Counted from the first letter of the stretch, positions 1 to 39,389 are shown. The stretch: 64,000 bases of DNA from an uncultured virus (IMG/VR IMGVR_UViG_2778261440_000004) (IMGVR_UViG_2778261440_000004:1-64000); one strand, 5' to 3'. Notes: generated by a model not told the origin, from the sequence alone. Translations and numbers: made by a program.

Positions 1-1305
1 ATGAGCTCTTTAGAAATCCCCTTCTATTTGAAGGATCCTAAATCAAACCACGAGACAAAAATATACATTAAGAAAAGTATTAATAGTAAGCAATTTAAAT
101 ATTACACTACTGAGTCGGTAAATCCAGATAATTGGAATTTTCAAAAACAAAAGGCTAAACTTATCGATTCAGAATCATACAGATTAAATGACTACTTGTT
201 ATACTTATCAAAAATAGTATCGTCTAAAATCAAAATATTTAAAAGACTTTATAAAGGAGATGAGATTGACTTTGATCTATTGAGAAAACACATTGATATT
301 GAGATTGAAGATAATCCTTATCAAAAGGATGAAGAAATAAAAGCTGAAATTAAAAATTCTAAAATTTCACTTTTCAGTGAGTTAGATGATTTCATATACC
401 TTAAATCTAAGAAGACTAAAGACGGTAAGATTGATAAAACTGATCCGTATTACAAGAAGTACAATAACGTTAGGAATAAACTTATCAAGTTCAATAAACA
501 CATTGGCGAAACATTGACGTTTGATCACCTTCGTAAATTTGAGATGTATGATTTGATGATGGACTTTCTTTACTATGAAATTGAGAATTCTACCAACACT
601 GCTGGAAGGTTTATCGGTTTCTTTAAAACATTCGTAAAATTCTGCAAAAGCAAGTATGTTAAAGAACTTTCTGATATAGATTTATCTCATTGGAAAAAAG
701 TAACAGAAGAAGCAGACGTTATTTTCTTTGATGAGGAGCAATTAGCATCTATTGAAAATTTTCAATACCCGGAGTTTTCTGCAAAGGATATGTGTAGGGA
801 TGTTCTAGTGTTACTATGTCACACTGGAATGAGATACAGTGATTATGAAAACTTAAAGCCATTCCATATCAAGAAAACCCACATCATAAAATCTTTCATC
901 AAAACAAAGTCAAAGAATAATCTAATTCCATTAGATGGAGTTACAAGAAGAATTATAGATAAATACCTGAAAAGGTACCGTGAAACGGGTATATTCTTTC
1001 ATAAAATAGCATTGAAAAATTTCAGTGAGCTAATAAAGGTGATATCAAAGGATGCTGGTTTAGTAGATGATATTTCCTTAGTAAGGAACTATGGCAAAGT
1101 TAGAAAAGAGTTTGTAGGGCCATTTTATAGTTTTGTGTCGAGTCATATAGGAAGAAGGACATTTATTACGTTGTCCCTACATAGAGGAATGTCAATATAT
1201 GAGGTTATGGACATTACTGATCATGCTGACGCTAAATCACTAAAGCCATATGCAAAAGTTTCTGATAAAGCTTTGATTCGATCACATAAAAATGCTTGGG
1301 ATTAG
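1..1305 (+). CDS. int: Tyrosine recombinase / phage integrase
   Basis: Catalytic motifs TGMRYSD, KTK, SSHIGRRTF, TDH and KPY; N-terminal arm-binding-like region typical of Bacteroidota integrases. Confidence 0.93.
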   Translation: MSSLEIPFYLKDPKSNHETKIYIKKSINSKQFKYYTTESVNPDNWNFQKQKAKLIDSESYRLNDYLLYLSKIVSSKIKIFKRLYKGDEIDFDLLRKHIDIEIEDNPYQKDEEIKAEIKNSKISLFSELDDFIYLKSKKTKDGKIDKTDPYYKKYNNVRNKLIKFNKHIGETLTFDHLRKFEMYDLMMDFLYYEIENSTNTAGRFIGFFKTFVKFCKSKYVKELSDIDLSHWKKVTEEADVIFFDEEQLASIENFQYPEFSAKDMCRDVLVLLCHTGMRYSDYENLKPFHIKKTHIIKSFIKTKSKNNLIPLDGVTRRIIDKYLKRYRETGIFFHKIALKNFSELIKVISKDAGLVDDISLVRNYGKVRKEFVGPFYSFVSSHIGRRTFITLSLHRGMSIYEVMDITDHADAKSLKPYAKVSDKALIRSHKNAWD

Positions 1306-10491: not shown

Positions 10492-10875
10492 ATGAACTTA
10501 GAAGAAGAAAAAAGAGAAAGTATAAAAGCTGATGCTAAAAAAGAGATAAGCAGACTTAAGGCAATGCTCGAATTAATAAAAGGTGATGACGATTGCGAAG
10601 CTTTATTAATTATTGATGGAGTTAAGCACGCCTTTTCAAGTTCTGGAATATTTACAGATACAATAAAGGCTGAAATAAGAGAAATTAATAAAGCGGTTGC
10701 TGGCTGGCGTTCATTTGATAAAGAAAAACCTTTGGACGGCAAAAAATACTACTACACACAAGATAATCAGTTTTTTAGAGGTATTTGGAATGAAGAAATG
10801 AAAGGTTTTTTGTTAGATGGATGTGGAGATAAAATGATTAGTAAAACCTGTGATTATTTCCACGCTTGCCACTAA
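10492..10875 (+). CDS. Modular hypothetical protein spanning a cassette junction at 10696
   Basis: MNLEEE... fused to VAGWRSFDKEKP...; its stop overlaps the TAAC core. Confidence 0.6.
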   Translation: MNLEEEKRESIKADAKKEISRLKAMLELIKGDDDCEALLIIDGVKHAFSSSGIFTDTIKAEIREINKAVAGWRSFDKEKPLDGKKYYYTQDNQFFRGIWNEEMKGFLLDGCGDKMISKTCDYFHACH

Positions 10876-10929
10876 CGGTTTGAATATGGTGTCGTAGTGA
10901 GGCACGAGCTATGCACTATATTTTGTGTT
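10874..10929. repeat. attC-like hairpin
   Basis: AAC...AATATGGTG.CGTAG loop CTATG.CACTATATT...GTT, 56 bp. Confidence 0.7.
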
Positions 10930-10962
10930 GGCGTAGTTTCGGATTATAAACGAAAACATACT

Positions 10963-11211
10963 ATGGATACAGAAACAGTAACAGTGCTTCCAAAAGGTGA
11001 AGACTTTGAGATTATAGTACGACACGACCAAAGCGGAAGTGCTTACGGAATAACTCTATCGAAGAACGCATACGAGCAATTACGCCAACACTTTGTTGTA
11101 GGGCGTAACGAACAGTTAGTTTGCCCTGATTGCAAGCATAAAGCAAGGATGCAGAATGGATTTATATGGTGCGAAAATGATGATTGTGGTGGTATTTATA
11201 GGGCAAACTAA
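10963..11211 (+). CDS. Small modular protein with a C-terminal Zn-finger (CPDC...CxxxxC)
   Basis: MDTETV...LRQHFVVGRNEQLVCPDC; reads across the GTT at 11095. Confidence 0.6.
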   Translation: MDTETVTVLPKGEDFEIIVRHDQSGSAYGITLSKNAYEQLRQHFVVGRNEQLVCPDCKHKARMQNGFIWCENDDCGGIYRAN

Positions 11212-19852: not shown

Positions 19853-19876
19853 AGTTGTCACTTAATTATAAGCTAT

Positions 19877-21245: not shown

Positions 21246-22985
21246 ATGACATTGTTATCTCCTCTAATCCTTGAAGGGTTAGACTTGTTTTGTGGTGCTG
21301 GTGGTACCACAACAGGAATTGAATTTGCCAATATTGAAGGGGTTAAAATTGCTAAAGTTATTGGATGCATTAACCATGATCCATTAGCAATATCAAGCCA
21401 CAGTGCAAATCATCCTGAGACGAAACATTTTATCGAAGACATTAGATTATTTGATACATCACTTTTACCTAAGAAGTCCGTTAATGCTAAAACATTTCTT
21501 TGGGCTTCGTTGGAGTGTACAAATTTCAGTAATGCTAAAGGGGGGCAATCGCGTGATGCTGACTCCAGAACTTTAGCTAATCATCTATTTAGATACATTG
21601 AATACTGGAAACCTGATTACATTCTGATTGAAAATGTCCGTGAGTTTATGGCCTGGGGACCACTCCGGGTTAAGTGTTCTAAAAAACATAATGATCGATC
21701 AGACTTAGCAATTAATAAGGATGGTCAATATGTTATGATTCCGGAGTCAAGAACAGCAGGTGTTGATTATCAGAGATGGGTGAAGAAAATCAAAGATTAT
21801 GGGTATAACTATGATAAGCGTTTGTTAAATGCAGCTGACTTTGGTGCATATACTTCACGTATCAGATACTTTGGAATGTTTGCTAAGAAAGGACTTCCAA
21901 TGGCATGGCCACAACAAACGCATGCTAAGAAACCTATAGGTCATTTAAAACCATGGAAGCCTGTTAAGGATGTTCTGGACTTAAATGATCATGGTGCATC
22001 TATTTTTTCAAGAAAAAAGCCATTATCTGAAAATACACTAAAGAGAATATATGCCGGTCTAGTGAAATATGTAGCTGAAGGTGATGAATCATTCATTAAG
22101 CAATATAATGGTGGTGGAAATGATCAACGAGTTTACTCTAATGATAGACCTATTACTGCTATATCAACAAACAACAGACATGCAGTTGTAACGCCTCATT
22201 ATATTGTAGACTATTACGGAAATGGAAGAACATACACCGGTGACTTACCATTAGGAACAATTCTAACTAAAGATAAATTCTCGTTCGTAACACCTGAGTT
22301 TTTACAAAAGTACCATGGTAATGGTGAAAACCTTGTTCCTCTAAATGGTCCTGCTAGTTCATTAACTACAAAAGATNGGTTGGCCATAATAAATGCACAA
22401 TGGCTAGATAAACAGTATTCAGGTGAATCAAACCATCAAAGTATAGATAAACCATCCGGCACTATTGTTACAAACGATAAACATGCTTTGTTTTCAGCTG
22501 AGCAACCATATTTACTTCAAACTAATTTCAATAATAATCCTAAGTCTATTAATGAGCCATCTGCAGCTATACTAGCATGTAGAAAAGCTCAGTATTTAGT
22601 TAATCCACAATTTACTAGCAAAGGATCCTCTATTGATAACCCATGTTTTACATTGATTGCAAGAATGGATAAAAGACCACCATCAATAGTTACAACAGAA
22701 CATATTGAATATGGTTACCCTGCAATTATTGTATTTGATGAAGATTCTGAAATCATGAAGAAAATAAAATACTTCATGGCGTACTTTGGAATTGCTGATA
22801 TCAAAATGCGTATGCTTAAAATAGTTGAGCTAAAACGTATTCAAGGGTTTCCTGATGACTATGTATTACACGGTACTCAGGCAGATCAAAAGAAGTTCAT
22901 TGGAAATGCTGTACATTCTATAATACCTAAAATGTGGGTAGAAGCTATTTATTCTTCGTTAAGTAGGAAAATGGATTTATCTTAA
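21246..22985 (+). CDS. C5-cytosine DNA methyltransferase
   Basis: DLFCGAGG, SLECTNFS, ENVREF, RIRYF, RIQGFP, IGNAV; repetitive TRD; one N base at 22377. Confidence 0.92.
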   Translation: MTLLSPLILEGLDLFCGAGGTTTGIEFANIEGVKIAKVIGCINHDPLAISSHSANHPETKHFIEDIRLFDTSLLPKKSVNAKTFLWASLECTNFSNAKGGQSRDADSRTLANHLFRYIEYWKPDYILIENVREFMAWGPLRVKCSKKHNDRSDLAINKDGQYVMIPESRTAGVDYQRWVKKIKDYGYNYDKRLLNAADFGAYTSRIRYFGMFAKKGLPMAWPQQTHAKKPIGHLKPWKPVKDVLDLNDHGASIFSRKKPLSENTLKRIYAGLVKYVAEGDESFIKQYNGGGNDQRVYSNDRPITAISTNNRHAVVTPHYIVDYYGNGRTYTGDLPLGTILTKDKFSFVTPEFLQKYHGNGENLVPLNGPASSLTTKDXLAIINAQWLDKQYSGESNHQSIDKPSGTIVTNDKHALFSAEQPYLLQTNFNNNPKSINEPSAAILACRKAQYLVNPQFTSKGSSIDNPCFTLIARMDKRPPSIVTTEHIEYGYPAIIVFDEDSEIMKKIKYFMAYFGIADIKMRMLKIVELKRIQGFPDDYVLHGTQADQKKFIGNAVHSIIPKMWVEAIYSSLSRKMDLS

Positions 22986-23370: not shown

Positions 23371-23415
23371 ATCATACGGAATTTTTCCGTCTCTCAATTA
23401 TAATATCTCAACTAT

Positions 23416-25760: not shown

Positions 25761-26200
25761 TCGAGAAAATAAAAGGTGATAGCCCTGATGTATACCGGTT
25801 GATAGCACCGTATGCAATGGATAGGAAATACATTCGAATGAATGACAATGTTATTACTACAAGCCCAAGTGATACATGGTACCTATTACTAGGTGATAAA
25901 AATGAGCTATTAGCATTTTACGCTGTATTTGAACACAAGAATAATAGCATTAAAGCTCACTCCTATTTACCTGTAAACATTGATTGGAAAAAAGGTCTAA
26001 ATATCCTATTAAGTGAAATTGTTTCCGATTTCAAATCATCTGATCACAATAGACTTTATACTTTCGGGAAAGATGAGTACCTCAGCATTTACAAGAAATT
26101 AGGATTTAAAATTTCAAACCGAAGAAAAGAATGGCACACACTAGAATTGGTAAAACGTACAAGGAAAAAAACGTCTACGAAGCAGCCAAAGAAAGAATAA
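25757..26200 (+). CDS. GNAT-like acetyltransferase
   Basis: LLAFYAV..., GLNILL, IYKKLGF C-terminal GNAT motif. Confidence 0.55.
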   Translation: MIEKIKGDSPDVYRLIAPYAMDRKYIRMNDNVITTSPSDTWYLLLGDKNELLAFYAVFEHKNNSIKAHSYLPVNIDWKKGLNILLSEIVSDFKSSDHNRLYTFGKDEYLSIYKKLGFKISNRRKEWHTLELVKRTRKKTSTKQPKKE

Positions 26201-27447
26201 AGTTTCTTTTCAATGAGTTCGAACAGATCGTTGTTTCATTTTCAGGAGGTAAAGACAGTGGTATTGTTCTGAATATGGTTCTTGAGTATGCTAATGATAA
26301 CTCTATGCTTGACAAGGTGTGTGTGTATCATATGGATTACGAAGCCCAATATCAGGCAACTACAGATTTTGTTACTGAAACTTTCAAAAGTCTACCCAAA
26401 CAAGTCTCAAAATATTGGGTATGTCTTCCAATAAAAGCTCAATGTAGTACATCAATGTTCCAAACGTATTGGCAACCTTGGAAGAAAGAAGACCGGGATA
26501 AGTGGTGTAGAGAACTACCAGAGAACTGTATAAATGAAGATAACTTCCCATTTGATTTTGATTATGAGATTTCTGATTATGACTTTAATCTCAAATTCGC
26601 TAAAGCTTTATCAAAGGAAAAACACACATGTTTCCTAATAGGTATTAGAACTCAAGAAAGTCTTCATAGATATAAAGCAGTAACAAAATTAGAGGACAAC
26701 AACACTTATAAAGGAATTAACTACACAACTACAATAAATTCAAATTGTATCAATGCTTATCCAATATATGATTGGCTTGTAGATGATGTATGGATTGCAT
26801 ATGGTCGTTTTAATTGGAAGTATAACAATATTTATAACCTTATGCATTTAGCAGGCCTTACACCTCATCAAATGAGAGTGGCAAGTCCATTTAATGATGC
26901 TGCACAAGAAAGCTTGAAACTATATAAAGCTTTAGACCCTAATAATTGGGGTAAATTGATTGGTCGCGTTAATGGAGTGAACTTCACAGGTCTTTATGGT
27001 GGTACCACTGCAATGGGATGGAATAGTATTTCTAAACCTGATCATTTTACGTGGAAGGAGTACATGTATTTTCTGCTTGAAACATTACCTGAAGATATAC
27101 GTGATAACTACCTCACTAAGCTAAAAACATCTTTTGCATATTGGTTAGAAAAAGGTGGGGCTCTTCCTGTTGAAACATTCAATGAATTACCATCTGATTT
27201 AGAATTTGAAGATTTGGGAAAGCCTCAGACAAAGAGGAAATACACTCAAGAATATAGAGTAGTAAAATTCAAAGAATATCTAGATGAGATTGAAATTAAG
27301 AATCCAAACCTTCTACCTACCTATAAAAGAATGTGCATAGCTATTATGAAAAACGATACCAGTTGTAAAACTCTTGGATTCGGACAAACAAAAGCTGAGC
27401 TGCAAAGAAGAAAAGATATTATGACAAAATACAAATCACTATTATGA
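26131..27447 (+). CDS. PAPS-reductase / DUF3440 protein (IbrA/YbdN-like), copy 2
   Basis: VSFSGGKDS, DYEAQY, GIRTQESLHR, YPIYDW, MRVASPF, RVNGVNF. Confidence 0.9.
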   Translation: MAHTRIGKTYKEKNVYEAAKERIKFLFNEFEQIVVSFSGGKDSGIVLNMVLEYANDNSMLDKVCVYHMDYEAQYQATTDFVTETFKSLPKQVSKYWVCLPIKAQCSTSMFQTYWQPWKKEDRDKWCRELPENCINEDNFPFDFDYEISDYDFNLKFAKALSKEKHTCFLIGIRTQESLHRYKAVTKLEDNNTYKGINYTTTINSNCINAYPIYDWLVDDVWIAYGRFNWKYNNIYNLMHLAGLTPHQMRVASPFNDAAQESLKLYKALDPNNWGKLIGRVNGVNFTGLYGGTTAMGWNSISKPDHFTWKEYMYFLLETLPEDIRDNYLTKLKTSFAYWLEKGGALPVETFNELPSDLEFEDLGKPQTKRKYTQEYRVVKFKEYLDEIEIKNPNLLPTYKRMCIAIMKNDTSCKTLGFGQTKAELQRRKDIMTKYKSLL

Positions 27448-27959
27448 AAAGCCCTGTATATAATGTTATCCCAGTACCAATTGATAAGATTAGAGCAAAT
27501 AGTTATAATCCAAATAGTGTAGCTCCTCCGGAGATGAAACTTCTTGAAACATCAATTTGGGAGGATGGGTATACAATGCCTGTTGTTTGCTATTACATAC
27601 CTGATGATGACATGTATGAAATTGTAGATGGGTTTCACCGGTATACTGTTCTTAAAACGAGTAAAAGGATTTATGAACGTGAAGATGGTAAGCTTCCTGT
27701 TGTAGTTATTGATAAAGACGAAAGTAATAGAATGGCTTCCACTATACGTCACAACCGGGCCAGAGGAACTCATGATATTTCTCTAATGGTAAATATTGTT
27801 GCAGAACTTAAGAAGGCTGGACAAGGTGATGCTTGGATAATGAAGCATATTGGAATGGATGCAGATGAACTACTTAGACTTAAACAACTAAGCGGTTTGA
27901 CAGAATTATTTAAAGATAAAGACTTTTCAAAATCATGGGAGTTAATAAGGAATCAATAG
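27444..27959 (+). CDS. ParB-like IbrB/YbdM-family protein, copy 2
   Basis: YNPNSVAPPEMKLL, DGYTMP, VDGFHRY, STIRHNRARGTH. Confidence 0.9.
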   Translation: MKSPVYNVIPVPIDKIRANSYNPNSVAPPEMKLLETSIWEDGYTMPVVCYYIPDDDMYEIVDGFHRYTVLKTSKRIYEREDGKLPVVVIDKDESNRMASTIRHNRARGTHDISLMVNIVAELKKAGQGDAWIMKHIGMDADELLRLKQLSGLTELFKDKDFSKSWELIRNQ

Positions 27960-28921: not shown

Positions 28922-29272
28922 GTGGAAAGATTAACACTAAAGGATTTAGCGATAGAACACGATTATTATTGCAGTGGAAGTAATTACTACAGTAATGAGC
29001 CAGAAATGAGCTTTGAAACTTTTGCTGAGTTTTATGAAGAGTTTCACGATGCAGATGTAGATATGAACTTAGTTTTTAGATGGGATTTGCGCAAGAGTGA
29101 GGAAAGCGAAATACATTACTTGGAAATATTTATGATGCAACAACGAAGAGGGATATTTAAACCTATACAAATAGAGTCGTTTTATGAAAGCGATATTGAA
29201 CTTTTTGTTAAATACTTGAAGCCACATATTGAAAAACTAAAAGCGATTTGGAAACCGTTTGAATTAAATTAG
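28922..29272 (+). CDS. Conserved phage hypothetical protein
   Basis: HDYYCS.SNYY, DVDMNLVFRWD, QQRRG motifs. Confidence 0.65.
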   Translation: MERLTLKDLAIEHDYYCSGSNYYSNEPEMSFETFAEFYEEFHDADVDMNLVFRWDLRKSEESEIHYLEIFMMQQRRGIFKPIQIESFYESDIELFVKYLKPHIEKLKAIWKPFELN

Positions 29273-30354: not shown

Positions 30355-30374
30355 TTATTGTTGTTGTTGCAAAA

Positions 30375-30396
30375 TACACAAGATTGTGTATTTTTG
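30375..30396 (+). promoter_or_regulatory. Operator copy 3 overlapping the TATTTTTG -7 element
   Basis: AAAATACACAagatTGTGTATTTTTG; TTG at 30367. Confidence 0.72.
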
Positions 30397-30428
30397 AGTC
30401 AAGTTAATCAATTATAACTCTCAACTAT

Positions 30429-30899: not shown

Positions 30900-30942
30900 A
30901 GGCGTAACAATTCTCTCAATTATAAATTCTCAATTATTAAAC

Positions 30943-31379: not shown

Positions 31380-31642
31380 TGAGGATAATCACACCGGCAC
31401 AAGCTACAGTGAAACTAAAAGGATTCATTGAACGTGTAGATAGAATCAAAGCAGATTCATACAAGAGAAAGGCTTCTAAAACATACGACAAGAAAACGAT
31501 ACTGTGGGAAATGAGTAGAGTTGGTTTATGGGCTTCAATAGCAAAGTTTAGTAAGAATTCAGACAATGCACAAAATGTAATAGATAGAGTGAAAAATGCT
31601 CACCTATTTGTCTCAAATATGATTTTCGATGGAGAGCTTTGA
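31379..31642 (+). CDS. Hypothetical protein
   Basis: TAATG coupling with the upstream gene (MRIITPAQ...). Confidence 0.5.
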   Translation: MRIITPAQATVKLKGFIERVDRIKADSYKRKASKTYDKKTILWEMSRVGLWASIAKFSKNSDNAQNVIDRVKNAHLFVSNMIFDGEL

Positions 31643-34133
31643 TAAAAACATACTCTATAAACAGTTTCTTGAATCTAAGATTATCACAACCCAAAACTAT
31701 GGGTTTGTTCCTGATACATTACACTCCTCATTATATCCACATCAAAAAGATGTTGTCACGTGGTCATTAGAAGGAGGTAGACGAGCTATATTTTGCAGCT
31801 TTGGGCTAGGTAAAACAGCCATGCAACTAGAAATAGGAAGACAGGTTGTTAAGTATACTAAAAAGCACTTCCTAATAGGAATACCTCTTGGTGTACTTGG
31901 TGAATTTAAAGATGATGCCAAAGATCTGTTTGGTATGAACATTCACTATGTAAGGGATATGGATGATGTGTTCATGATAAATGAACCTTCAATTCTGATA
32001 AGTAATTACGAAAGGATCCGTGAAGGTAAATTTACACCTGATATTTTCGGAGGTGTTTCCTTTGATGAAGGAGATGCAATCAGAAATCTTGATACAAAGA
32101 CTTCTGACTATATCATAAATGAAATGTCAAGAATTCCTTTGCGATTTATTGCTACTGCTACTCCAGCACCAAATGAATACACTGAAATTCTAAATTATGC
32201 TCATTTCCTAGGTGTGTGTGATAGAGGTCAGGCATTGACTAGGTTTTTTCAACGTGATAGTAAAAAGGCAGGTAATCTCACCTTATACCCTCATAAAGAA
32301 CATGAATTTTGGTTATGGGTTAGAAGTTGGGCAATATTCATAGAATATCCTTCTGATTTAGGTTATTCAGATGAAGGTTATAAACTACCTGATTTCAAGA
32401 TACACTATCATCAAATTGAATTAAAAGATAGGAAGCTGATTGTTGATCGAGATGATCAGATTAAAATGTTTGCGGATGCTAGTAAAGGCCTTTCTGAAGC
32501 TGCTAGAGAAAAGAGAGAAAGCTTGTTTGCTCGATGTGTTAAGTCTGTTGAAATAGTAAATAAACATCAGAATGATCATTTTATCCTCTGGCATGATTTA
32601 GAAGATGAAAGAAAAGTTATTCAAAACTTACTGCCTGGTGTTAATACTGTTTATGGTTCTCAGAAGAATGAGCAAAAAGAGGAGTTACTAAATCAATTCA
32701 AGCACGGTAAATACCAATATCTAGCAACTAAACCTAGTATTGCTGGTGCAGGTTGTAACTTTCAGAAACATTGTCACAATGTTGTGTTTGTTGGAATAGG
32801 ATATAAGTTCAAAGATTTTATTCAAGCAATTCACAGAGTACTTCGATTTGGTCAAATTTTTAACGTTAACATTCATCTTGTTTATACTGATGCTGAGGTT
32901 GAGGTCCTAAAGAAATTAGAATCTAAATGGACCAAGCATAAAGAAATGATTGCTGAAATGACCAACCTTATGCGTAAATATGGATTATCACAGCGTGATG
33001 CTATCAATGATCTAAAGAGAACTATACAAATAGATCGTGAAGAGGTTTCCGGAGATAAATTCACTTGCATTCATAATGATGCTGTTGAAGAGGTTAAAAA
33101 TATGTCGGATAACAGCTTAGATATGATCTGTTCGTCTATTCCATTTTCTGATCAGTATGAATATTGTGAAAGCTACAGAGACTTTGGCCACAATAATGGT
33201 AATGAAGGGTTCTTCAAGCAAATGGACTACTTAACTCCAGAGCTTTTGAGAATAACTAAACCCGGTAGAGTTGCTGCAATACATGTGAAGGATAGGATCC
33301 AGTACAGTTATCAAAATGGAGTTGGTTTCACATCATTAATAGATTTCTCTGGTTTAACGGTTCAACATTTTGTTAAGCATGGTTGGCACTTATTAGGTAA
33401 ACACATTATCACAACAGATGTAGTAAGTGAGAATAACCAAACATATCGATTAGGATGGTCAGAACAATGTAAAGACGGTACCAAGATGGGTGCCGGTTCT
33501 CCTGAATACTTATTGATATTCAGAAAGCCTCCAACTGATATGAGTAATGCATATGCTGATGATCGTGTAGTAAAAGATAAGAAGCATTATTCAAGGGGTA
33601 AATGGCAATTGGATGCACATGCTCACTGGCATTCTAATGGTAATAGATTATTGACACCTGAAGAATTGAGAAAGATGAACCTTTCACAAATCGGTAAATG
33701 GTGGAAACAATATTGTCAGGAAAATCCCTATGATTACGATACACATGTTAAGCTGTGTGAAACTCTTGATGAAATAGGTAAGCTACCTTCTAAGTTTATG
33801 GCCATACCTCCTCCTAGTAAAAGTGATGGTGTTTGGACTGATATAAACCGTATGCACACTCTTAACACAAGTCAAACTAATAGGAAGCAAGAAAAACATG
33901 TATGTCCATTGCAGTTTGATATTGTTGACCGGTCAATTATTAGATATAGCAATGAAGGAGATACTGTTTATGATCCTTTCGGTGGTGTTATGACAGTTCC
34001 TTTCAGATGTATCAAATTAAATCGAATTGGAATAGCTACAGAGCTTAATAAAGGGTATTGGAAAGATGGTGTTAACTACTGCAGGGAAGCAGAGTACAAA
34101 AACTCAATACCCACTCTATTTGACACATTTTGA
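31629..34133 (+). CDS. SNF2-helicase / N4-N6 DNA methyltransferase fusion
   Basis: FGLGKT, FDE, ATATP, QAIHRVLRFGQ; SSIPF, HVCPLQ, YDPFGG. Confidence 0.88.
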   Translation: MESFDKNILYKQFLESKIITTQNYGFVPDTLHSSLYPHQKDVVTWSLEGGRRAIFCSFGLGKTAMQLEIGRQVVKYTKKHFLIGIPLGVLGEFKDDAKDLFGMNIHYVRDMDDVFMINEPSILISNYERIREGKFTPDIFGGVSFDEGDAIRNLDTKTSDYIINEMSRIPLRFIATATPAPNEYTEILNYAHFLGVCDRGQALTRFFQRDSKKAGNLTLYPHKEHEFWLWVRSWAIFIEYPSDLGYSDEGYKLPDFKIHYHQIELKDRKLIVDRDDQIKMFADASKGLSEAAREKRESLFARCVKSVEIVNKHQNDHFILWHDLEDERKVIQNLLPGVNTVYGSQKNEQKEELLNQFKHGKYQYLATKPSIAGAGCNFQKHCHNVVFVGIGYKFKDFIQAIHRVLRFGQIFNVNIHLVYTDAEVEVLKKLESKWTKHKEMIAEMTNLMRKYGLSQRDAINDLKRTIQIDREEVSGDKFTCIHNDAVEEVKNMSDNSLDMICSSIPFSDQYEYCESYRDFGHNNGNEGFFKQMDYLTPELLRITKPGRVAAIHVKDRIQYSYQNGVGFTSLIDFSGLTVQHFVKHGWHLLGKHIITTDVVSENNQTYRLGWSEQCKDGTKMGAGSPEYLLIFRKPPTDMSNAYADDRVVKDKKHYSRGKWQLDAHAHWHSNGNRLLTPEELRKMNLSQIGKWWKQYCQENPYDYDTHVKLCETLDEIGKLPSKFMAIPPPSKSDGVWTDINRMHTLNTSQTNRKQEKHVCPLQFDIVDRSIIRYSNEGDTVYDPFGGVMTVPFRCIKLNRIGIATELNKGYWKDGVNYCREAEYKNSIPTLFDTF

Positions 34134-34228
34134 AATTTCAAACTAATAAAACTGATTTACATGGAATGTGTCATTCACGGAGGTCTAGACGAAAACATTG
34201 TGGATGAAAAACAACGAGCCTTGCAACT

Positions 34229-34353
34229 AACGTGCCTAGTATAAAAGCTGGCGGGGAATGAACGGCAAACACTTTCCCGAAAGCTCAAAACTTACTTAAA
34301 CATCCGAAGCGGTCAAAAAGACACTGCAACCCCGCTTGATTTTATACTGTGTT
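34229..34353. repeat. attC-like hairpin
   Basis: AAC..AGTATAAAA..GCGGGG ... CCCCGC..TTTTATACT..GTT. Confidence 0.75.
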
Positions 34354-34369
34354 GTGGTGCGTTTTTATT

Positions 34370-34570
34370 ATGGGAAAAGGATTTGCAATTTTAATTTGGG
34401 ACGATTGGGGTTCAGGATTGGTCAGAATAAACCCACGACTGTTAGACAATGGGCACACTGACATATATGGCAACCCAAACAACTGGTTTCCCTACAAAAC
34501 GGAAGAACAGAAGCAAGAAATGATTAAAGAATTGGTTGGTGATAGTAAATACTATGTTGTGATTGACTAA
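34370..34570 (+). CDS. Cassette-borne small hypothetical protein
   Basis: Single ORF filling GTTGTGGTGCGTTT...AAATGCACCACAAC. Confidence 0.65.
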   Translation: MGKGFAILIWDDWGSGLVRINPRLLDNGHTDIYGNPNNWFPYKTEEQKQEMIKELVGDSKYYVVID

Positions 34571-34579
34571 ATGCACCAC

Positions 34580-34665
34580 AACGGCCTTGATAAAAAATCG
34601 GGCGCAAACCTGAACCTTGGAAACTGAGCGCAAACGCTGCCTGCGCCTGTTTTTTATCTTTTGTT
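34580..34665. repeat. attC-like hairpin
   Basis: AAC..GATAAAAAA..GGGCGCA ... TGCGCCT.TTTTTTATC..GTT. Confidence 0.75.
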
Positions 34666-34686
34666 GGCAGCAGTTAATTCAAGATT

Positions 34687-35523
34687 ATGGAAACATTGAA
34701 ATTACATCACATTGCACCTTACTTGCCTTATAAGTTAAAGTGCCTAACAGTTGATAAAGGTGAAATAGTAATATCTGAGCTTAACGCTGCATATTCTGAC
34801 AACTCCTATACGTTTATGAATATCGTAGAATCTTATAAAGGATTTGAAGACATTAAACCATTATTGAAACCCATGAGTGCTTTTGATAATGGTTATGTAG
34901 CAGAATTAGCTAGATATGTATCTACTATTGACGATAAGTACACTATTGAAAGTGCTTGGACAATGATTGAGGAACGAATATCAAAGCCTTTGAATATGCC
35001 TTACGTTATTGTTAAGAGATTACTCCGATGGAAATTTGATGTATTTGGATTAATTGATAAAGGTCTTGCTTTGAATTCAGACTTATTTGTTAATGATCAT
35101 ATTAAAGAGGAAGATTCCGTCTACATTAGGTCAGACAATTACCCTAATACTATCGATCAATTCAAAGCAATTGTTTCACCGTATCAGTTTATTGGTAATG
35201 AAGTTCGGCCTCAAGATCCTGACGAACACAAGTATGATGAGTGTATAGATAAAACACAATCTAATTCAGATATGGTTGAAAAGAAAACATGGCCAGAATT
35301 CAGGAGTACTGGTCTAGTTTTGATTATTAATCAATTATTACATGTTTTTGGTTGGTCCATTGTTTTTGAAATAGAAAATGATGAAGTGAGAAGTGTTTAT
35401 CCTGCAAGGGTTAAATTTAGAGGGTTTGATAACAAGACTACTTCTTACAATTATCAAAAAGTTAGCGAATACCTAAAAGAACATGCAAAAGAGCTGCATA
35501 ATGAAGTAAAAGATCACATTTAA
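34687..35523 (+). CDS. Bacteroidota-phage-type hypothetical protein (probably two fused modules)
   Basis: APYLPYKL, IKPLLKPMS, FDVFGLIDKGLA; second module WPEFRSTGL...PARVKFRGF. Confidence 0.65.
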   Translation: METLKLHHIAPYLPYKLKCLTVDKGEIVISELNAAYSDNSYTFMNIVESYKGFEDIKPLLKPMSAFDNGYVAELARYVSTIDDKYTIESAWTMIEERISKPLNMPYVIVKRLLRWKFDVFGLIDKGLALNSDLFVNDHIKEEDSVYIRSDNYPNTIDQFKAIVSPYQFIGNEVRPQDPDEHKYDECIDKTQSNSDMVEKKTWPEFRSTGLVLIINQLLHVFGWSIVFEIENDEVRSVYPARVKFRGFDNKTTSYNYQKVSEYLKEHAKELHNEVKDHI

Positions 35524-35538
35524 ATGTAATTTCATCTT

Positions 35539-35913
35539 ATGAAATATGAATTGATCCACAATGAAAAACAAGAAGGTGATATATCCGGAGTAGATTTATT
35601 ACCAATTGAAACTTTCGTGTCTGTTGATATAAAAGAATATGCTCAACATTTTGTGTTTTCTGAATTAAGAGAAGGTAGCATTTGGACCTACACAATTGAA
35701 CTTTTAATTTCTGGCCGAAATTGCAAATCAATAGTTAAGGTAACTAACTTTACCCATCCATTGGGAAATGACGAGTCATATAGGACTTACGGGGGTGGTA
35801 CTCAATTAAACTGGATAATCGATGTAGAGGATGATATGATATATTACTTGCAAAATTTAGCAGCTGAAGCTTTGAATTATTTCATAAGTGAAACAATGCC
35901 AGCCAGTTTTTAA
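35539..35913 (+). CDS. Hypothetical protein
   Basis: ORF in operon. Confidence 0.55.
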   Translation: MKYELIHNEKQEGDISGVDLLPIETFVSVDIKEYAQHFVFSELREGSIWTYTIELLISGRNCKSIVKVTNFTHPLGNDESYRTYGGGTQLNWIIDVEDDMIYYLQNLAAEALNYFISETMPASF

Positions 35914-36041
35914 AAGCAAAGGAGAATAAAACAGAATCATATCAAAAAATTGATTATATCTATAAGAAGTTGAAATACTTGGCAGATTTTTAGATTACTG
36001 GGGCACATCAAACGTTAATTTCCTTGGAAAAAGGAGGTGAA

Positions 36042-36194
36042 ATGGTTCTAGCAAGTCAAAACCCGCAAGAGTCAAAAGAAATTTTCAAGCGATTTACAGG
36101 CCGTGAAATTGATCTTATTCCAGATGGTGAAAGTGTTGGTTTCATTGTTAAGTTGATTCCAGATAAAAAATGTACACAATCGAAAAGCAAATAG
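36042..36194 (+). CDS. Small hypothetical protein (50 aa, below the ORF-track cutoff)
   Basis: MVLASQNPQESKEIF...; preceded by AGGAGGTG. Confidence 0.4.
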   Translation: MVLASQNPQESKEIFKRFTGREIDLIPDGESVGFIVKLIPDKKCTQSKSK

Positions 36195-36343
36195 CTGATA
36201 AGTGGCATTTCGAAGCTTACGAATATGAACTCGAAATTGCTATAGCTAAGTGCAACGAATTGTTTGAAGCATCGCCCGGACGTTACCGCGTTTTCTCTAC
36301 TAGAACCAAGAAAAATGTATACAATGTAACCAACGACTTTTAA
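36170..36343 (+). CDS. Small hypothetical protein (57 aa, below the ORF-track cutoff)
   Basis: MYTIEKQIADKWHFEAYEY...TNDF. Confidence 0.5.
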   Translation: MYTIEKQIADKWHFEAYEYELEIAIAKCNELFEASPGRYRVFSTRTKKNVYNVTNDF

Positions 36344-36439
36344 ACGTTTCTGAATTCTGCATTGATGCTTTACAATTAACAGACTTCATTAAACAGGTGA
36401 CTATTATTTGGATTTTTTTTTCAAAAAACACATCCATTA

Positions 36440-36455
36440 TACACATAATTGTGTA
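36440..36455. promoter_or_regulatory. Operator copy 4
   Basis: TACACAtaatTGTGTA followed by a TAATTTAG -7 variant and the CTCTC motif. Confidence 0.68.
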
Positions 36456-36507
36456 ATTTAGCGACACAATTAACAACTCTCAACTATAACTCTTAATTAT
36501 TATTCTT

Positions 36508-36729
36508 ATGAAATCTCACTCAAGAGCTAACATTCTTGATGTTATTCAAAAAGTTCAAGAAGCTCAAATTCAAAACGAAGGTTTATCTCCTCATTTCAAT
36601 AGAGAAAAATACTGTGGAACTTGTTTGTCACATGATAAAGCAGCTCACCCTGAAACAGATAAGTGCTTTCATTGTGATTCTGATAATTGGATAAGTCAAC
36701 AAGAGTATAATTCAAGATTAGCTAAGTAA
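36508..36729 (+). CDS. Small Zn-finger-like protein
   Basis: CGTC...CFHC. Confidence 0.6.
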   Translation: MKSHSRANILDVIQKVQEAQIQNEGLSPHFNREKYCGTCLSHDKAAHPETDKCFHCDSDNWISQQEYNSRLAK

Positions 36730-37079
36730 TGGGACAACCAAAAAACGGTGAACTGTGGCTTTTAGAGTTTAAAAGCGATGGTGCTAAAACAGCTATGTTC
36801 TACAACAATGGACATTGGTATTCACGTGATAATCATTCTACAGCATGGGATGAGCAATTTGAACTTGTTGAAAAGCTTAAGGATGCTCCAAATAACAAAC
36901 CAAAAGACAAAGAAGTCTGGCTAGTAGAAAATAAAGGAAGGATGGCATTTGCTGTTTACAACGCCAATTCAAAAAGATTATACACAACATTCACTAAAGA
37001 TGGAGATCTATCATTCGAGCTTAGTAAAACTACTAGTCCCGTTAAACTACTTTTTAAAAGCTTGGAGGATGTGATATGA
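36729..37079 (+). CDS. Hypothetical protein with an internal repeat
   Basis: PKNGELWLLE / PKDKEVWLVE duplication. Confidence 0.6.
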   Translation: MGQPKNGELWLLEFKSDGAKTAMFYNNGHWYSRDNHSTAWDEQFELVEKLKDAPNNKPKDKEVWLVENKGRMAFAVYNANSKRLYTTFTKDGDLSFELSKTTSPVKLLFKSLEDVI

Positions 37080-37363
37080 TGATTTTTAAATTTGATATCA
37101 ATCTAAAAGTATACTCATCTAATGTTTTGCCGGTTCCATCTGCAGATGATACAAAATATAGTGTAGATGTGGTAATAGTAGATGAAGATAATATGTCTGG
37201 TCTAGCATTTTATTCATTTTCTAAAGGTGAATGGAAATTTCATACAGATACAATGTGTGATGATCATGAAAATGGTAAACCAAAACAATTCTGGTGGTAC
37301 TATCCCCCTATCCTTAAAACAACTGGAAAAGCTCAGTTGATTGTAAATCCAAAACATGTTTAA
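37076..37363 (+). CDS. DUF551-like hypothetical protein
   Basis: LP...S.DV....AFY....W...WYYP pattern. Confidence 0.5.
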   Translation: MMIFKFDINLKVYSSNVLPVPSADDTKYSVDVVIVDEDNMSGLAFYSFSKGEWKFHTDTMCDDHENGKPKQFWWYYPPILKTTGKAQLIVNPKHV

Positions 37364-37586
37364 AATGGATCATTTGACTATAAAGATAAATGGTATTGAG
37401 CTAGAGGTTGGTTACAAATTCATAACTGGCACACCGAATAGTGAATGGACTGGTGATGGAGCTACGCCAGGTATTCCGGATAGCGTAGAAATACAAGAAG
37501 TGTACCTACAAGACGAAGACATAACAAGCTTAATTAACAAAGAATCATTTTCCTCAATTGAGGAAGAGGTTTTGAAAATGCATTGA
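37356..37586 (+). CDS. Hypothetical protein
   Basis: PG.PDSVEI..V....DIT motif. Confidence 0.6.
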   Translation: MFKMDHLTIKINGIELEVGYKFITGTPNSEWTGDGATPGIPDSVEIQEVYLQDEDITSLINKESFSSIEEEVLKMH

Positions 37587-37775
37587 ATGATGGATAAAGA
37601 ATCTCAATTTGTAGAACTTATGCGAACTTCAAACAGAATAGCAGTTGCTAAAAACCACTGCAAAATTAATCCTGTATTCTCAGATAAAATTAAACCATTT
37701 AAAAATCGTACATACAATAGATTGACTCAAATGCAAGAGTCAATAGGCGTGCAAGTAAATGAGTTGTATTGGTAG
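37587..37775 (+). CDS. Hypothetical protein ending at a cassette core
   Basis: Stop followed by TTATTGCTGCCAAC. Confidence 0.5.
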   Translation: MMDKESQFVELMRTSNRIAVAKNHCKINPVFSDKIKPFKNRTYNRLTQMQESIGVQVNELYW

Positions 37776-37786
37776 TTATTGCTGCC

Positions 37787-37876
37787 AACCTGTTCTAATA
37801 AACACATGTGGCGCAACTCACGCCACTTTAATAGGATGCAAAACGACAACTTGCGCCGTTGGGTTTATTTATTGTT
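37787..37876. repeat. attC-like hairpin
   Basis: AAC..AATAAAC..GGCGCAA ... TTGCGCC..GTTTATT..GTT. Confidence 0.7.
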
Positions 37877-37895
37877 GGGATTTCGTTTTTGAGCG

Positions 37896-38123
37896 ATGGG
37901 ATTAAATGGACAGCAAGTAATTAGAGGATTGAAAAGAGATAGCGACAACTATGTAAAGCACTATCTCGGTAATATTTGCCTACACAACAATGAAGGCGAC
38001 AATTTAGGGCAAATTAGCTATAGAGTATTTGACAACTTACTAAAGAAAGGCGAAATTAAACGAGTAGCCTTATCTAAGGAATTTTGGTCTGATGGATACT
38101 ATCAACTGAGCGTGGGCAAATGA
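37896..38123 (+). CDS. Cassette-borne hypothetical protein
   Basis: Lies between GTTGGGATT (37874) and AATGCCAAC (ends 38131). Confidence 0.6.
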   Translation: MGLNGQQVIRGLKRDSDNYVKHYLGNICLHNNEGDNLGQISYRVFDNLLKKGEIKRVALSKEFWSDGYYQLSVGK

Positions 38124-38337
38124 ATGCCAACGGTTTAGCTATGCTATAGCACCATTATAACTCACAGATAAACAGACATGCTAAATAAGTGTATAATAAA
38201 ATGAAACTACACTTTGAAATAGAGTTGTTTAAATAATGCTACTTCTAATTTTAGAATTAGTGGCAATAAACAATATTTTGCTATTTTTTTATAAGTAAAT
38301 ACAAGTAAAGTAAAGTAAAGTGAATATATTTGTCCCG

Positions 38338-38446
38338 TATTAATAAAAAAAGACCGAGCTCCAACAGAACTCGATCTTAGCATTACTGAATGTATGTCTA
38401 AAGACATTTAAAAGCGAATTCTGAGCCTAAAAGGATTCGCTTTTAT
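38338..38446 (+). ncRNA. Candidate antisense sRNA
   Basis: TATATTTG at 38325-38332, GACCGAG/CTCGATC hairpin, terminator AAAGCGAAT...ATTCGCTTTT 38411-38444. Confidence 0.45.
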
Positions 38447-38530
38447 CGTTATGGACTTAGGCCTAAACATCACTAGAATAGGCAAGGCCATTTTAACTGC
38501 ATCAAAATGTTCGATTATAAAATCAAACAT
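38408..38530 (-). CDS. 40-aa peptide, candidate type I toxin
   Basis: MFDFIIEHFDAVKMALPILVMFRPKSITIKANPFRLRIRF; minus-strand TATATTTG at 38631-38638. Confidence 0.4.
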   Translation of the reverse strand: MFDFIIEHFDAVKMALPILVMFRPKSITIKANPFRLRIRF

Positions 38531-38951
38531 TGACACTTCACTTTATCCTTCTCAAAATATATACAGTGCATGATGTTGGCTTTGCACTATAATATTCTAA
38601 GTGAATATTCATTGGTAAAAACATTAAACACAAATATACAGGATTAATAGGCTTATTCTACCCTGTATGATCTTCAGCATTCATATTTCCCCTTAAACTA
38701 TAATTATTGTTAATAAATAGCGATTGATATACATGACTATTAATTCGTCATTAATGCCTATATTAGCGTCATATCTCGATCATAAATACTCAATCACATG
38801 TTAATTACTGAAGGTTTTCAACTGTTGTGCACATTATCGCATTTTTATCAACATTCCTATTGTTCATTTCTAGTTAAACAATATACTGTTTATGTATTTT
38901 AAATCATACGCATTTTCATGTGCGTCTCTCGACTATAAACTATCAATTATT

Positions 38952-39389
38952 ATGAAAAAAATGACCTATGCCCAAGCGCGGGAATGGGTTAAACTTAATC
39001 TAAAGCCAATTGGTATTAACACCAAGAAGAAGTTCATTGATTATATGACTTCAAATGGATACTTACCAGAAGGTTTTCCTAAATCACCTTATTATCATTT
39101 CAAGTCCAAACATAAGGACCCGCGCAATGTGTCTTGGATAAGCTGGAAAGACTTCTTGTCATATGGTGAACAACCAATTCAATCAAAGGAAATAATAGAA
39201 TTTGATAGAAAGTATCTTATCACTTCTTCCGGTGAAATTATTAGTAACAGAAAAAGCCAAAAAGGACGAAAGCTTAAGGTCTATTACTCAAAAAAAGGAG
39301 AGCCTAAAGTAAAAATCAGGCTAAACTATGCAAAGTATGCTGTTATTGATATCAATCAGCTTATGCAAAAGTATTTCCCTAAAGAATAG
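38952..39389 (+). CDS. Integrase-repeat-like plus NUMOD4-like DNA-binding protein
   Basis: YAQAREWV...P..P...W.SWKDFL; YLITSSGEIIS...KLK; ATG follows the CTCTC motif. Confidence 0.55.
   Translation: MKKMTYAQAREWVKLNLKPIGINTKKKFIDYMTSNGYLPEGFPKSPYYHFKSKHKDPRNVSWISWKDFLSYGEQPIQSKEIIEFDRKYLITSSGEIISNRKSQKGRKLKVYYSKKGEPKVKIRLNYAKYAVIDINQLMQKYFPKE

Follow-up and report, generated by a model that had tools for sequence, protein, structure and literature searches.

In integron gene cassettes, a conserved family of sites, attC, carries unrelated compact ORFs whose stop codons lie in or beside the site. AAC and GTT cores close an imperfect hairpin made up of an outer box, a spacer, an inner box, and a variable tip, while the bases past GTT are already part of the next unit and pair with those preceding its AAC. 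These sites are about 57–141 nt long, usually lie 3' of the ORF, and recombine at G|TT. In the Xer-dependent dif modules of Acinetobacter plasmids, inverted tyrosine-recombinase half-sites bound gene modules, forming an inverted repeat of ~11 bp; the centre of the dif sites is fixed at 6 bp, and their arms are conserved in sequence. Qi et al. 2023 (PMC9892861) report that phages carry attC clusters lacking an integrase (CALIN). In T4-type phages, small stem-loops (PeSLs) flank non-essential ORFs in plastic regions and mark the ends of insertions, deletions, and replacements between close relatives, implying circular intermediates; PeSLs are described as sequence-conserved promoter and terminator units exchanged by homologous recombination (Arbiol et al. 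2010, PMC2839356; Comeau et al. 2014, PMC4122927).

The window, i.e., the whole stretch of DNA analyzed here, comprises 64,000 nucleotides from an uncultured virus (IMG/VR IMGVR_UViG_2778261440_000004) and contains the following features:

1..1305, + strand: prophage tyrosine integrase, not IntI; the sole recombinase found in the window besides the Sak4-like annealing protein
5692-6768: Sak4-like annealing protein
10873..10930, + strand: hairpin h0, TAAC-ggttt-GAATATGGTG...CACTATATTT-tgt-GTTG; of the type of the hairpins of Polaribacter phages P12002L and P12002S, by comparison with P12002L intergenic hairpins
10927..11089, + strand: h0 arm pair, GTTGGCGTAGTT (10927-10938) and AATTACGCCAAC (11078-11089)
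34228..34354, + strand: hairpin h1, from a family of conserved ~125-nt elements (model R1; 153 bits, E 1e-29)
34351..34364, + strand: 5' arm of unit A, GTTGTGGTGCGTTT, conserved jointly with h1 in subfamily a
34370..34570, + strand: cargo ORF A, 66 aa, without a match in Pfam or PHROG; homologues on contigs L056, L058, L059, L060, and L061
34569..34582, + strand: 3' arm of unit A, AAATGCACCACAAC, overlapping the stop codon TAA
34579..34666, + strand: hairpin h2, CAAC-ggcctt-GATAAAAAA...TTTTTTATC-tttt-GTTG
34663..37789, + strand: unit B, with 5' arm GTTGGCAGCAGT, about ten + strand ORFs (34687-37775), and 3' arm ATTGCTGCCAAC (37778-37789)
37786..37877, + strand: hairpin h3, CAAC-ctgttct-AATAAAC...GTTTATT-tatt-GTTG
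37874..38131, + strand: unit C, with 5' arm GTTGGGATTTCGTTT, an ORF at 37896-38123 (75 aa, no family), and 3' arm AAATGAATGCCAAC; weak pairing
38129..38135, + strand: array-end junction AAC-G-GTT, cores without a hairpin between them; a like form occurs in L058 and P12002L
38892..39389, + strand: HNH/NUMOD4 endonuclease gene with weak family matches, 760 bp beyond the array end

All four hairpins span YAAC to TGTTR. The initial annotation had described three of them as an integron-like array, and their core coordinates are confirmed (AAC at 34229, 34580, and 37787; GTT at 34351, 34663, and 37874); h0, which has the same build, had been overlooked. The AT-rich outer stem ascribed to h1–h3 is present in each (h1 AGTATAAAA/TTTTATACT; h2 GATAAAAAA/TTTTTTATC; h3 AATAAAC/GTTTATT), and the GC-rich inner stem in h1 and h2, while that of h3 is instead a local GTGGCG/CGCCAC hairpin. 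The hairpins were also said to be otherwise unrelated in sequence, which does not hold for h1 and h0, both members of conserved families. With lengths of 58, 127, 88, and 92 nt (h0 to h3), they fall inside or at the edge of the attC size range, and they share the attC-like layout described above; the AT-rich inner stem is 7–10 bp, and the unpaired spacer is 5–7 nt on the 5' side and 1–4 nt on the 3' side. AAC and GTT occur in 4/4, always as YAAC and GTTR, and the remaining positions of RYYYAAC/GTTRRRY fit partly (e.g., GTTGTGG, GTTGGCA, GTTGGGA, and GTTGGCG). The cores depart in part, as previously noted, from the 7-nt attC consensus given in section 3.4 of PMC9892861, of which just YAAC/GTTR is kept.

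The + strand fold energies of h1, h2, and h3 are unexceptional (z = -1.13, -2.12, and -0.63 against 200 shuffles); even so, just one 110-nt fold in the window is more stable than h2. None of h1–h3 has a second copy in its own genome, a simple scan called none of them a + strand terminator, and a search of Rfam (E<=10, region 33500-39000) gave no relevant match. Sigma-70-like promoter matches are at background (22 vs 19.2) in a scan of a type that leaves out Bacteroidota promoters. The promoter and terminator composite that defines PeSLs was thus not found in h1–h3 by genomic copy or by this sigma-70-type scan.

As in attC arrays, the bases past GTT pair with the bases preceding the next AAC, spanning the gene or genes between. 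The arms of unit A, GTTGTGGTGCGTTT (34351) and AAATGCACCACAAC (34582), form 13 Watson-Crick pairs and one G:T, and those of unit B, GTTGGCAGCAGT (34663) and ATTGCTGCCAAC (37789), form 11 pairs and one G:T. By chance, a GTTR/YAAC pair specified in advance would reach a score of at least 13 in the window with a probability of 5e-5, and of at least 11 with a probability of 6e-4. Two of the three cross-segment pairings originally proposed are therefore far beyond chance; the third (37874/38131, given as 8/9) is not above chance on its own, since it scores 6.5 ungapped and the control pair 34663/38131 scores 7. Allowing a 1-nt bulge, this third pair has a CGTTT/AAATG end with a G:T, as in other pairs. 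The h0 arms GTTGGCGTAGTT/AATTACGCCAAC score 11, so the signature is seen in three pairs (scores 13, 11, and 11; per-pair chance 5e-5 to 6e-4), with the fourth at 6.5. The h0 3' arm lies within an ORF (10964-11211), which makes its status as a cassette end uncertain. The flanks of one and the same hairpin pair over just 3–5 bases, in agreement with the earlier statement that they do not pair. GTTR...YAAC inverted repeats are weakly enriched window-wide (22 observed with a score of at least 11; shuffled mean 10.2, maximum 17); the signal is the position of the arm pairs, not their number.

Stop codons said to sit just before the AAC cores lie within the 3' arms or directly ahead of them (TAA 34568-70, TAG 37773-75, and TGA 38121-23), except that the first AAC has no real gene stop upstream. 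The middle "cassette," unit B, fits the claim as written less well: it is 3.1 kb long, holds about ten ORFs, and includes, within 36344-36507, an internal operator/leader motif that is characteristic of the phage.

We searched IMG/VR with a 20-nt pattern from the 3' end of h1 and found 17 matching loci, giving 18 rows with the window; two are duplicates of other loci, and contig L048 accounts for one. In 13 of the 18 rows (12 of the 17 loci), a complementary arm (score at least 12) ends 11–13 nt past the stop of the first ORF. The cargo of these arm-bearing rows falls into nine unrelated ORF families (all-against-all blastp, E 1e-3), each framed by the same arm pair, with the stop falling within the 3' arm. 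One locus, L143, carries a compensatory arm variant (GTTATGGTGCG/GCACCATAAC), and in two, L134 and L136, h1 is present and the partner arm was not found. In this family, the cargo follows the hairpin and its 5' arm. The flank ahead of the hairpin is variable (14 of 15 aligned sequences), while the downstream arm stays linked to the hairpin; a gene is accompanied by its upstream hairpin. The window and L048 share h1 along with 11 nt ahead of it. The ORF A homologues (50–59% identity) have arms that diverge in sequence yet stay complementary (GTGGTG/CACCAC, ATAAAA/TTTTAT, AGGCA/TGCCT, and ATGCAT/ATGCAT), apart from L059, where ORF A is present and neither arm nor hairpin was found. Another cassette, 92% identical between L046 and L047, has different neighbours in the two and ends in both exactly at ...AAC; its common left end is GTT, not AAC.

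Polaribacter phage P12002L has the window architecture throughout its early region. Its common blocks with P12002S are 95–99.7% identical, and the two phages differ by cassette swaps. Comparison of this natural pair reveals gain and loss at the AAC cores: of 6 indels examined, 5 have their breaks at YAAC, no more than 2 nt from AAC and at hairpin/arm junctions, as PeSLs also mark the ends of indels and replacements. One P12002S-specific unit, consisting of a hairpin, a methyltransferase gene, and an arm, is inserted exactly between two YAAC| points. The breakpoint is YAAC| on the coding strand (the AAC side) and not G|TT, as had been claimed. Not conforming is BP0 of P12002S, which falls in an A/T-rich leader. 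The junctions have 6 nt, TAACGT, in common. In P12002L gp36 the 5' arm is chimeric, while in P12002S the homologue's pairing closes around its own hairpin. HattCI predicted attC sites of this hairpin type in P12002L, just two according to Qi et al. 2023 (PMC9892861); in section 3.4 of that source, P12002L_attC2 is recombined by IntI1, and P12002L_attC1 is the single site out of six to fail the IntI1 assay. P12002L_attC1 (Table S3 of PMC9892861), whose hairpin core is identical to that of L047 hp1 adjoining a window-gene homologue, is of all published sites the nearest to the present hairpins. The array-wide arm pairing and the P12002L/P12002S cassette swaps go beyond section 3.4 and supplement file 1 of PMC9892861.

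No integron integrase accompanies these sites, in contrast to integrons. The window integrase is not IntI, as reported, and matches Xer-type models best, far under their cut-offs. A host-encoded IntI, suggested earlier, was found neither in the host genome, where the best TIGR02249 match is 78.5 bits against a cut-off of 265, nor in 68 genomes of the host order, where 0/68 exceed the cut-off. Because the window prophage shares only an endolysin-like protein with P12002L and P12002S, no common phage enzyme is visible.

The best explanation, in which we have moderate confidence, is a prophage-borne, integron-like array of mobile gene cassettes that recombine at the 5' YAAC once the sites are folded, each ORF lying downstream of its hairpin. 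This retains the original idea of an accessory region built from circularly permuted units joined at AAC/GTT hairpin cores, on the evidence of nine cargo families, covarying arms, 5/6 indels at YAAC, and the attC predictions in P12002L. On the coding strand, a unit would read YAA|C, structured hairpin, T-GTTR, 5' arm, short T-rich leader, ORF(s), and 3' arm overlapping the stop, followed by the next YAA|C. Were a unit closed into a circle, its arms would pair and lengthen the hairpin to one long imperfect stem-loop with the attC layout of outer AAC/GTT box, unpaired spacer, inner AT-rich box, and variable tip. The coding strand would fold as single-stranded DNA: of 39 non-Watson-Crick positions across 26 arm pairs, 19 are G (5' arm) opposite T (3' arm), 13 of these at arm position 11, with just 1 T:G and 1 A:C, which points to coding-strand folding. 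A recombinase reading this structure and the AAC/GTT core would cut at the 5' AAC, and units would leave as circles and insert at other such sites; because they would insert as circles, each 5' arm is complementary to the arm behind its own cargo and not to the arm ahead of its hairpin. The anatomy, its repeated occurrence with unrelated cargo, the covarying arms, and the YAAC breakpoints between natural phage pairs are observed; the single-stranded fold, the circle, and the enzyme we infer. Candidates for the enzyme are an Xer-type recombinase of the host, some other tyrosine recombinase, the prophage integrase, or another enzyme.

These arrays differ from typical cassettes in that the hairpin precedes the ORF and the breakpoints are YAAC| on the coding strand, in place of a site 3' of the ORF and a G|TT crossover; with attC polarity as we take it to be, the ORFs are presumably inverted. 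In contrast to attC, the arms are 12–30 nt with a conserved G:T at position 11, and hairpin interiors are conserved across phages. The likeness to Acinetobacter dif modules lies in gene modules flanked by inverted repeats of site halves; here, however, 1 to ~120 nt separate the cores, and the arms vary freely provided pairing holds. The lack of IntI and of a phage enzyme common to the window and P12002L/S, the cores that match the consensus just as YAAC/GTTR, the IntI1 assay failed by P12002L_attC1, the loci with h1 or ORF A that lack arms (L134, L136, and L059), the unremarkable folds, the 3.1-kb unit B, the misfit breakpoints, and the conserved h1 interior count against an array.

That last point bears on whether the hairpins act on RNA. 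Conservation of the h1 interior is strong and extends to its loops. Its internal helices covary, and the 5' arm can pair instead with a ...YAAC segment inside h1, a competing structure followed by a T-run right ahead of the start codon; the interior looks more like a functional RNA than a variable attC tip. Related elements also sit between chromosomal genes in three host-family genomes. The hairpins could be leaders or processing signals, the transcript's 5' leader (hairpin and 5' arm) pairing with its own 3' end as a panhandle in stability, processing, or translation control, in line with the 19-to-1 excess of G:T over A:C arm mismatches, and with breakpoints at unit edges reflecting selection against broken units, not a cutting site. 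As the whole explanation we regard this as distinctly unlikely: it leaves unexplained nine ORF families exactly between the same arms with the stop inside the 3' arm, the clustering of breakpoints at AAC within 50–125 nt hairpins, and invariant bases that equal the integron core AAC/GTT, it has no matching Rfam family, and it would still require a DNA-level cassette mechanism. Within a cassette array, the hairpins may also act on transcripts.

Exchange without a dedicated site-specific recombinase is unlikely. Hairpins and arms would be PeSL-like composite stem-loop (terminator/leader) motifs, and general or annealing-type recombination, by host RecA or the phage Sak4-like protein encoded in the window, would swap arms and make mini-circles, with exchange between the short loop YAACG(T)GTTR or between whole conserved hairpins. 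T4-type phages shuffle ORFs by conserved promoter/stem-loop motifs and form mini-circles (PMC2839356, PMC4122927), closed arms resemble an A-tract/stem/T-tract stem-loop, and the 50–125 nt hairpin families common to phages would supply homology; the TAACGT common to the junctions, some breakpoints within arms or leaders, and the failure to find a common recombinase, also fit. However, arms differ between neighbouring units, so that homology at most junctions is just 4–6 nt, and 5/6 indels still fall within 2 nt of AAC. Unlike in PeSLs, arm complementarity is kept by covariation, and no hairpin promoter or + strand terminator was identified for h1–h3 in scans that leave out Bacteroidota promoters. 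Very improbable is that the hairpins are small non-autonomous MITE-like elements inserting at AACG|TGTT in existing palindromic intergenic stem-loops, with cross-gene pairing left over from earlier rearrangements. There are "empty" junctions (AAC-G-GTT and AAC-GT-GTT), a given hairpin type can be bordered by one arm pair in one phage and by another elsewhere, and the 11 nt that L048 shares ahead of h1 would suit it, but insertion in a palindrome would leave a hairpin's flanks mutually complementary, which in the window they are not, and h1 is tied to its downstream arm, not to its variable upstream flank.

We favor the cassette array. In this prophage of a marine Bacteroidota-like bacterium, small genes are framed by integron-like hairpin sites that resemble and behave like integron recombination sites with no integron integrase present, and the same framing is seen around unrelated genes in many other phages.

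Three hairpins, each opening with YAAC and closing with GTTR, are present in the window where an integron-like cassette array had been proposed in the initial annotation. They lie in the interval from the helicase-methylase gene to the packaging genes of a prophage (G+C ~33%) within contig C13 of the host genome (4.49 Mb in 37 contigs). The prophage also carries genes for replication, Sak4-like annealing, ParB-like nuclease, PAPS-reductase-like, and DNA methyltransferase proteins.

Features of the hairpin array and its surroundings (window coordinates)
1-1305, tyrosine integrase, first gene of the window
10873-10930, hairpin h0
31629-34133, helicase-methylase fusion gene
34228-34354, hairpin h1
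34370-34570, ORF A (66 aa)
34579-34666, hairpin h2
34663-37789, unit B
34687-35523, gene for a 278-aa protein
37786-37877, hairpin h3
37896-38123, ORF C
40165 onward, terminase, portal, and later genes

Hairpins h1 to h3 share one layout: YAAC, 5-7 unpaired nt, 7-10 bp of AT-rich stem, an interior that is GC-rich in h1 and h2, 1-4 unpaired nt, and T-GTTR. Their fold energies are ordinary (z = -1.13, -2.12, and -0.63 for h1, h2, and h3 on the + strand), and h2 is the second most stable 110-nt fold within the window. The bases following a GTT (5' arm) were compared with those preceding the next AAC across the cargo (3' arm). The h1-GTT and h2-AAC arms score 13 and the h2-GTT and h3-AAC arms score 11, while the chance per pre-specified GTTR/YAAC pair in the window is 5e-5 for a score of at least 13 and 6e-4 for at least 11; the left and right flanks of any single hairpin pair over only 3-5 bases. 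The third pairing originally reported (37874/38131) scores 6.5, below the 7 of a control pair, and so alone provides no evidence. The cross-gene pairing is thus real for two of the three cases, beyond chance in both, and the wider comparisons below strengthen it. A further hairpin of the same build, h0, has an arm score of 11, with its 3' arm within an ORF.

Window-wide, GTTR...YAAC repeats are about twice as numerous as in shuffles. The architecture alone was rejected as specific: a generic detector (AAC, spacer, stem of at least 8, spacer, GTT) found 11 matches versus 2-11 in shuffles and missed h3. The case for cassettes therefore rests on position and comparison, not on window-wide counts. 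A search of the host genome found no second copy of h1, h2, h3, or any of the cassettes, and an Rfam search gave no relevant match. None of the eleven array ORFs belongs to a Pfam family (0/11), and only the 278-aa protein has PHROGs matches, all of unknown function. All or part of the stretch occurs, always as contigs, in 6 of 11 listed sequencing runs from 3 studies, with no RNA data listed among them; no joints were found in the 4 runs aligned to it. Run X4 lacks cover over 34208-34669, but no contig spans the gap, so it is uninformative as a deletion. In metagenome run X2, summed contig depth is 584 in the bin 38212-38365, which holds (GTAAA)n-like short repeats near 38296-38320, versus ~5 elsewhere, indicating that a short sequence there is common in that sample.

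Unit B spans 3.1 kb and contains an operator/leader motif used elsewhere by this phage. The palindrome ATACACA-n4-TGTGTAT followed by the leader TCTCAAYTATAA is repeated ahead of gene blocks and resembles a set of operator and promoter/leader elements belonging to this phage. In the window, a PAPS-reductase-like gene and a ParB-like nuclease gene form a pair that occurs as two paralogous copies; with two more ParB-like genes and one for a large DNA methyltransferase, these make up a heavy load of genes that probably serve DNA modification. The intergenic stretch 4028-4093 terminates in the homopolymer hairpin CCCCCCATTTGGGGGGGG.

Repeated motifs and modification genes in the window
Within 4337-4570, 19829-19876, 30355-30428, and 36344-36507, palindrome plus leader TCTCAAYTATAA
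Near 5094-5136, 11790-11818, 14000-14028, 14782-14839, 23371-23415, and 30900-30942, leader TCTCAAYTATAA alone, before genes
17704-19382 and 26131-27959, also 14840-16958 and 21246-22985, PAPS-reductase-like/ParB-like pairs, further ParB-like genes, and methyltransferase

No close DNA relatives of the window exist among 3 genus genomes or 58 family genomes, and the phage collection matches only the helicase-methylase gene (at most 67%). Loci encoding the helicase-methylase protein were rejected for indel mapping, being all distant (at most 52% identity), many of them in Proteobacteria; the terminase led to a single locus at 50% identity. ORF C has no relatives in IMG/VR, and tblastn found none of ORF A in the phage collection. 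A 15-nt arm pattern matched 56 IMG/VR loci, only two of them real (L076 and L065), both duplicates of loci L046 and L047.

The h1 element itself proved to be a family. A 20-nt pattern from its 3' end matched 17 IMG/VR loci, including two duplicates of others, one on the L048 contig, and L131, in which the pattern is present only in its 3' portion; L131 lacks a complementary arm and is not a real h1 element. In an alignment of 15 sequences, which omits the duplicates and L131, the ~125-nt element is well conserved (76% mean column identity) and divides into two subfamilies whose stems differ by compensatory changes. It is always followed by the 5' arm of its subfamily, GTTGTGGTGCGTT or GTTGTGTGCAGTT, while the sequence ahead of it is variable, mostly ending in YAAC. 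The complementary arm ends 11-13 nt past the stop codon of the first ORF in 13 of 18 rows, window included; it is weaker in L137 (score 9) and absent from L134 and L136, and L141 is too short to judge. The framed ORFs, which lie downstream of the hairpin, fall into nine families without mutual blastp match at E 1e-3. The site is thus conserved while the cargo varies and fits it tightly, as in integron cassettes. An h1 covariance model scores the window copy at 153 bits and has three weak matches among 57 other family genomes, situated between chromosomal genes.

Chromosomal relatives of h1 in three host-family genomes, of the form YAAC-G...GTATAAGAGCAGTAGCGG...CCGCTATTGCTTTTATAC-T-GTTGG
L147, ~1116-1267
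L148, ~1501-1652
L149, ~1501-1651

The cargo genes also recur. Relatives of ORF A occur on five other contigs at 50-67% identity, and in three (L056, L058, and L061) GTTR...YAAC arms again surround the homologue. The inner arm bases, GTGGTG/CACCAC in the window, are ATAAAA/TTTTAT, AGGCA/TGCCT, and ATGCAT/ATGCAT in the homologues, changed yet complementary. L058 and L061 have a hairpin immediately upstream of the homologue, while L059 has neither arms nor hairpin. In L046 and L047, the 278-aa protein is represented by its N-terminal part alone, encoded as a separate gene. At the DNA level these copies are 92% identical, and the arms GTTAGCTACTGGCAC / GTGCTTGTAGCTAAC frame them; the shared stretch runs precisely from GTT on the left to ...AAC on the right, beyond which the neighbouring genes have nothing in common. 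The first hairpin of L047 shares its core with P12002L_attC1 of Qi et al. (PMC9892861).

Qi et al. 2023 describe integrase-less attC clusters in 17 phages, including Polaribacter phage P12002L (PMC9892861), so the kind is already known. In coding orientation, the early region of P12002L repeats the window architecture many times, in the order stop codon, arm, YAAC, hairpin or short linker, TGTTR, arm, leader, ATG, with each 5' arm complementary to the next 3' arm across the gene. Hairpin h0 is similar in sequence to those of P12002L and its relative P12002S. The sole protein in common between the window prophage and these phages is endolysin-like.

Arm pairs in P12002L
GTTACCTA/TAGGTAAC, framing a methyltransferase gene
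GTTACCCA/TGGGTAAC, framing a Mom-like gene
GTTAGGCAC/GTGCCTAAC, framing a second methyltransferase gene

The common blocks of P12002L and P12002S are 95-99.7% identical, and their early regions differ by inserted or replaced blocks. Six of seven length differences were examined as indels, the seventh falling within the tape-measure gene, and in five of the six the limit of identity lies at most 2 nt from a YAAC; the other, BP0, lies in an A/T-rich leader without AAC/GTT cores. In the clearest case, P12002S alone carries, precisely between ...CAGGTAAC| and the hairpin that follows, an inserted unit composed of hairpin, arm GTTACCTGGCG, methyltransferase gene, and arm ...TTGCTAAC. This is consistent with a crossover on the AAC side but not with one at G|TT of the coding strand, the point first suggested. 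In one cassette (P12002L gp36 / P12002S gp38), the 5' arm is chimeric or "unshifted". Behind many early genes of both phages comes ...ATTAC-nnn-CAAC and, after it, the conserved motif GTGATTGTGTAT...TAGYGCG, and several intergenic hairpins have the common loop TCGTTTTAATG with covarying stems. The attC2 element of Qi et al. has two copies in P12002L (29172-29239 and 37200-37265), each at the downstream end of a methyltransferase/modification cassette block; on its left it ends at a breakpoint between P12002L and P12002S.

The coding strand reads YAAC-G...T-GTTR, like the forward oligonucleotides in Table S3 of that work (PMC9892861). Among 26 arm pairs there are 39 non-Watson-Crick positions; at 19 of these a 5'-arm G faces a 3'-arm T (13 of the 19 at arm position 11), versus one T:G and one A:C. 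This excess indicates that the coding strand pairs better, as single-stranded DNA or RNA. The integron integrase, IntI, cleaves the attC bottom strand at its 5' AAC, and we take the Table S3 forward oligonucleotides of Qi et al. to be bottom strands. If this strand assignment holds, polarity, breakpoints, and wobble are mutually consistent, and the ORFs run in the opposite orientation to those of usual cassettes.

No IntI was found in the host (best match 78.5 bits versus a cut-off of 265) or above the cut-off in any of 68 genomes of its order, and the published site closest to the window hairpins was negative in an IntI1 assay (PMC9892861). Both findings speak against simple membership among integron attC sites, as do the lone protein shared with the Polaribacter phages and the length and operator/leader motif of unit B. 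Of the 68 order genomes, 27 encode a tyrosine recombinase of ~385-510 aa (loci L125-L128; 405 aa in L126) that matches the IntI model over its N-terminal half at E<=1e-30. These matches reach 155 bits, under the 265 cut-off, and many of the genes lie 370-900 nt from contig ends, as expected of multi-copy elements; the host genome itself has no such match at E<=1e-30.

The best single explanation, to which we give an even chance, is an integron-like cassette array with its polarity corrected and its recombinase left unnamed. The cassette logic of the original reading is borne out by the h1 family and the P12002L/S swaps; its polarity is not, given hairpins upstream of the cargo and breakpoints on the AAC side. 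Block exchange resembling that at promoter-early stem-loops (PeSL) is an unlikely alternative. Pairing of the arms at the RNA level is improbable as the whole account. The conserved loops of h1, its covarying internal helices, and an internal competitor for pairing with the 5' arm speak against simple attC membership and suggest that h1 also functions as RNA. Insertion of the hairpins themselves is very improbable. As a specific form of the cassette array, it is possible, though doubtful, that Flavobacteriia phages have their own IntI-free integron-like system. Conserved folded sites such as the h1 family, measuring ~150 nt in closed form and marked by the YAAC/GTTR core together with a G:T pair fixed at position 11 of the arms, would capture and shuffle single ORFs, including DNA methyltransferase and modification genes, through a novel or host Xer-type recombinase acting on the coding strand.

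To our knowledge, integron cassettes are known almost only together with IntI, and the question of how ORFs come to be linked to attC sites is unsolved. In the literature consulted, including passages of PMC9892861, we found no description of conserved site families with framed cargo, of a fixed G:T in the arms, or of the P12002L/S cassette swaps at YAAC. The present loci provide a phage-borne, IntI-free attC-like set with clear family structure, in which one site serves nine unrelated ORF families, and a natural phage pair distinguished by whole cassettes, the exchanged genes including DNA methyltransferase and modification genes as annotated in the records. If the exchange is site-specific, it would represent a new recombinase-site pair and a route for accessory-gene exchange by phages; if not, these phages would be a second clade with PeSL-like modular shuffling.
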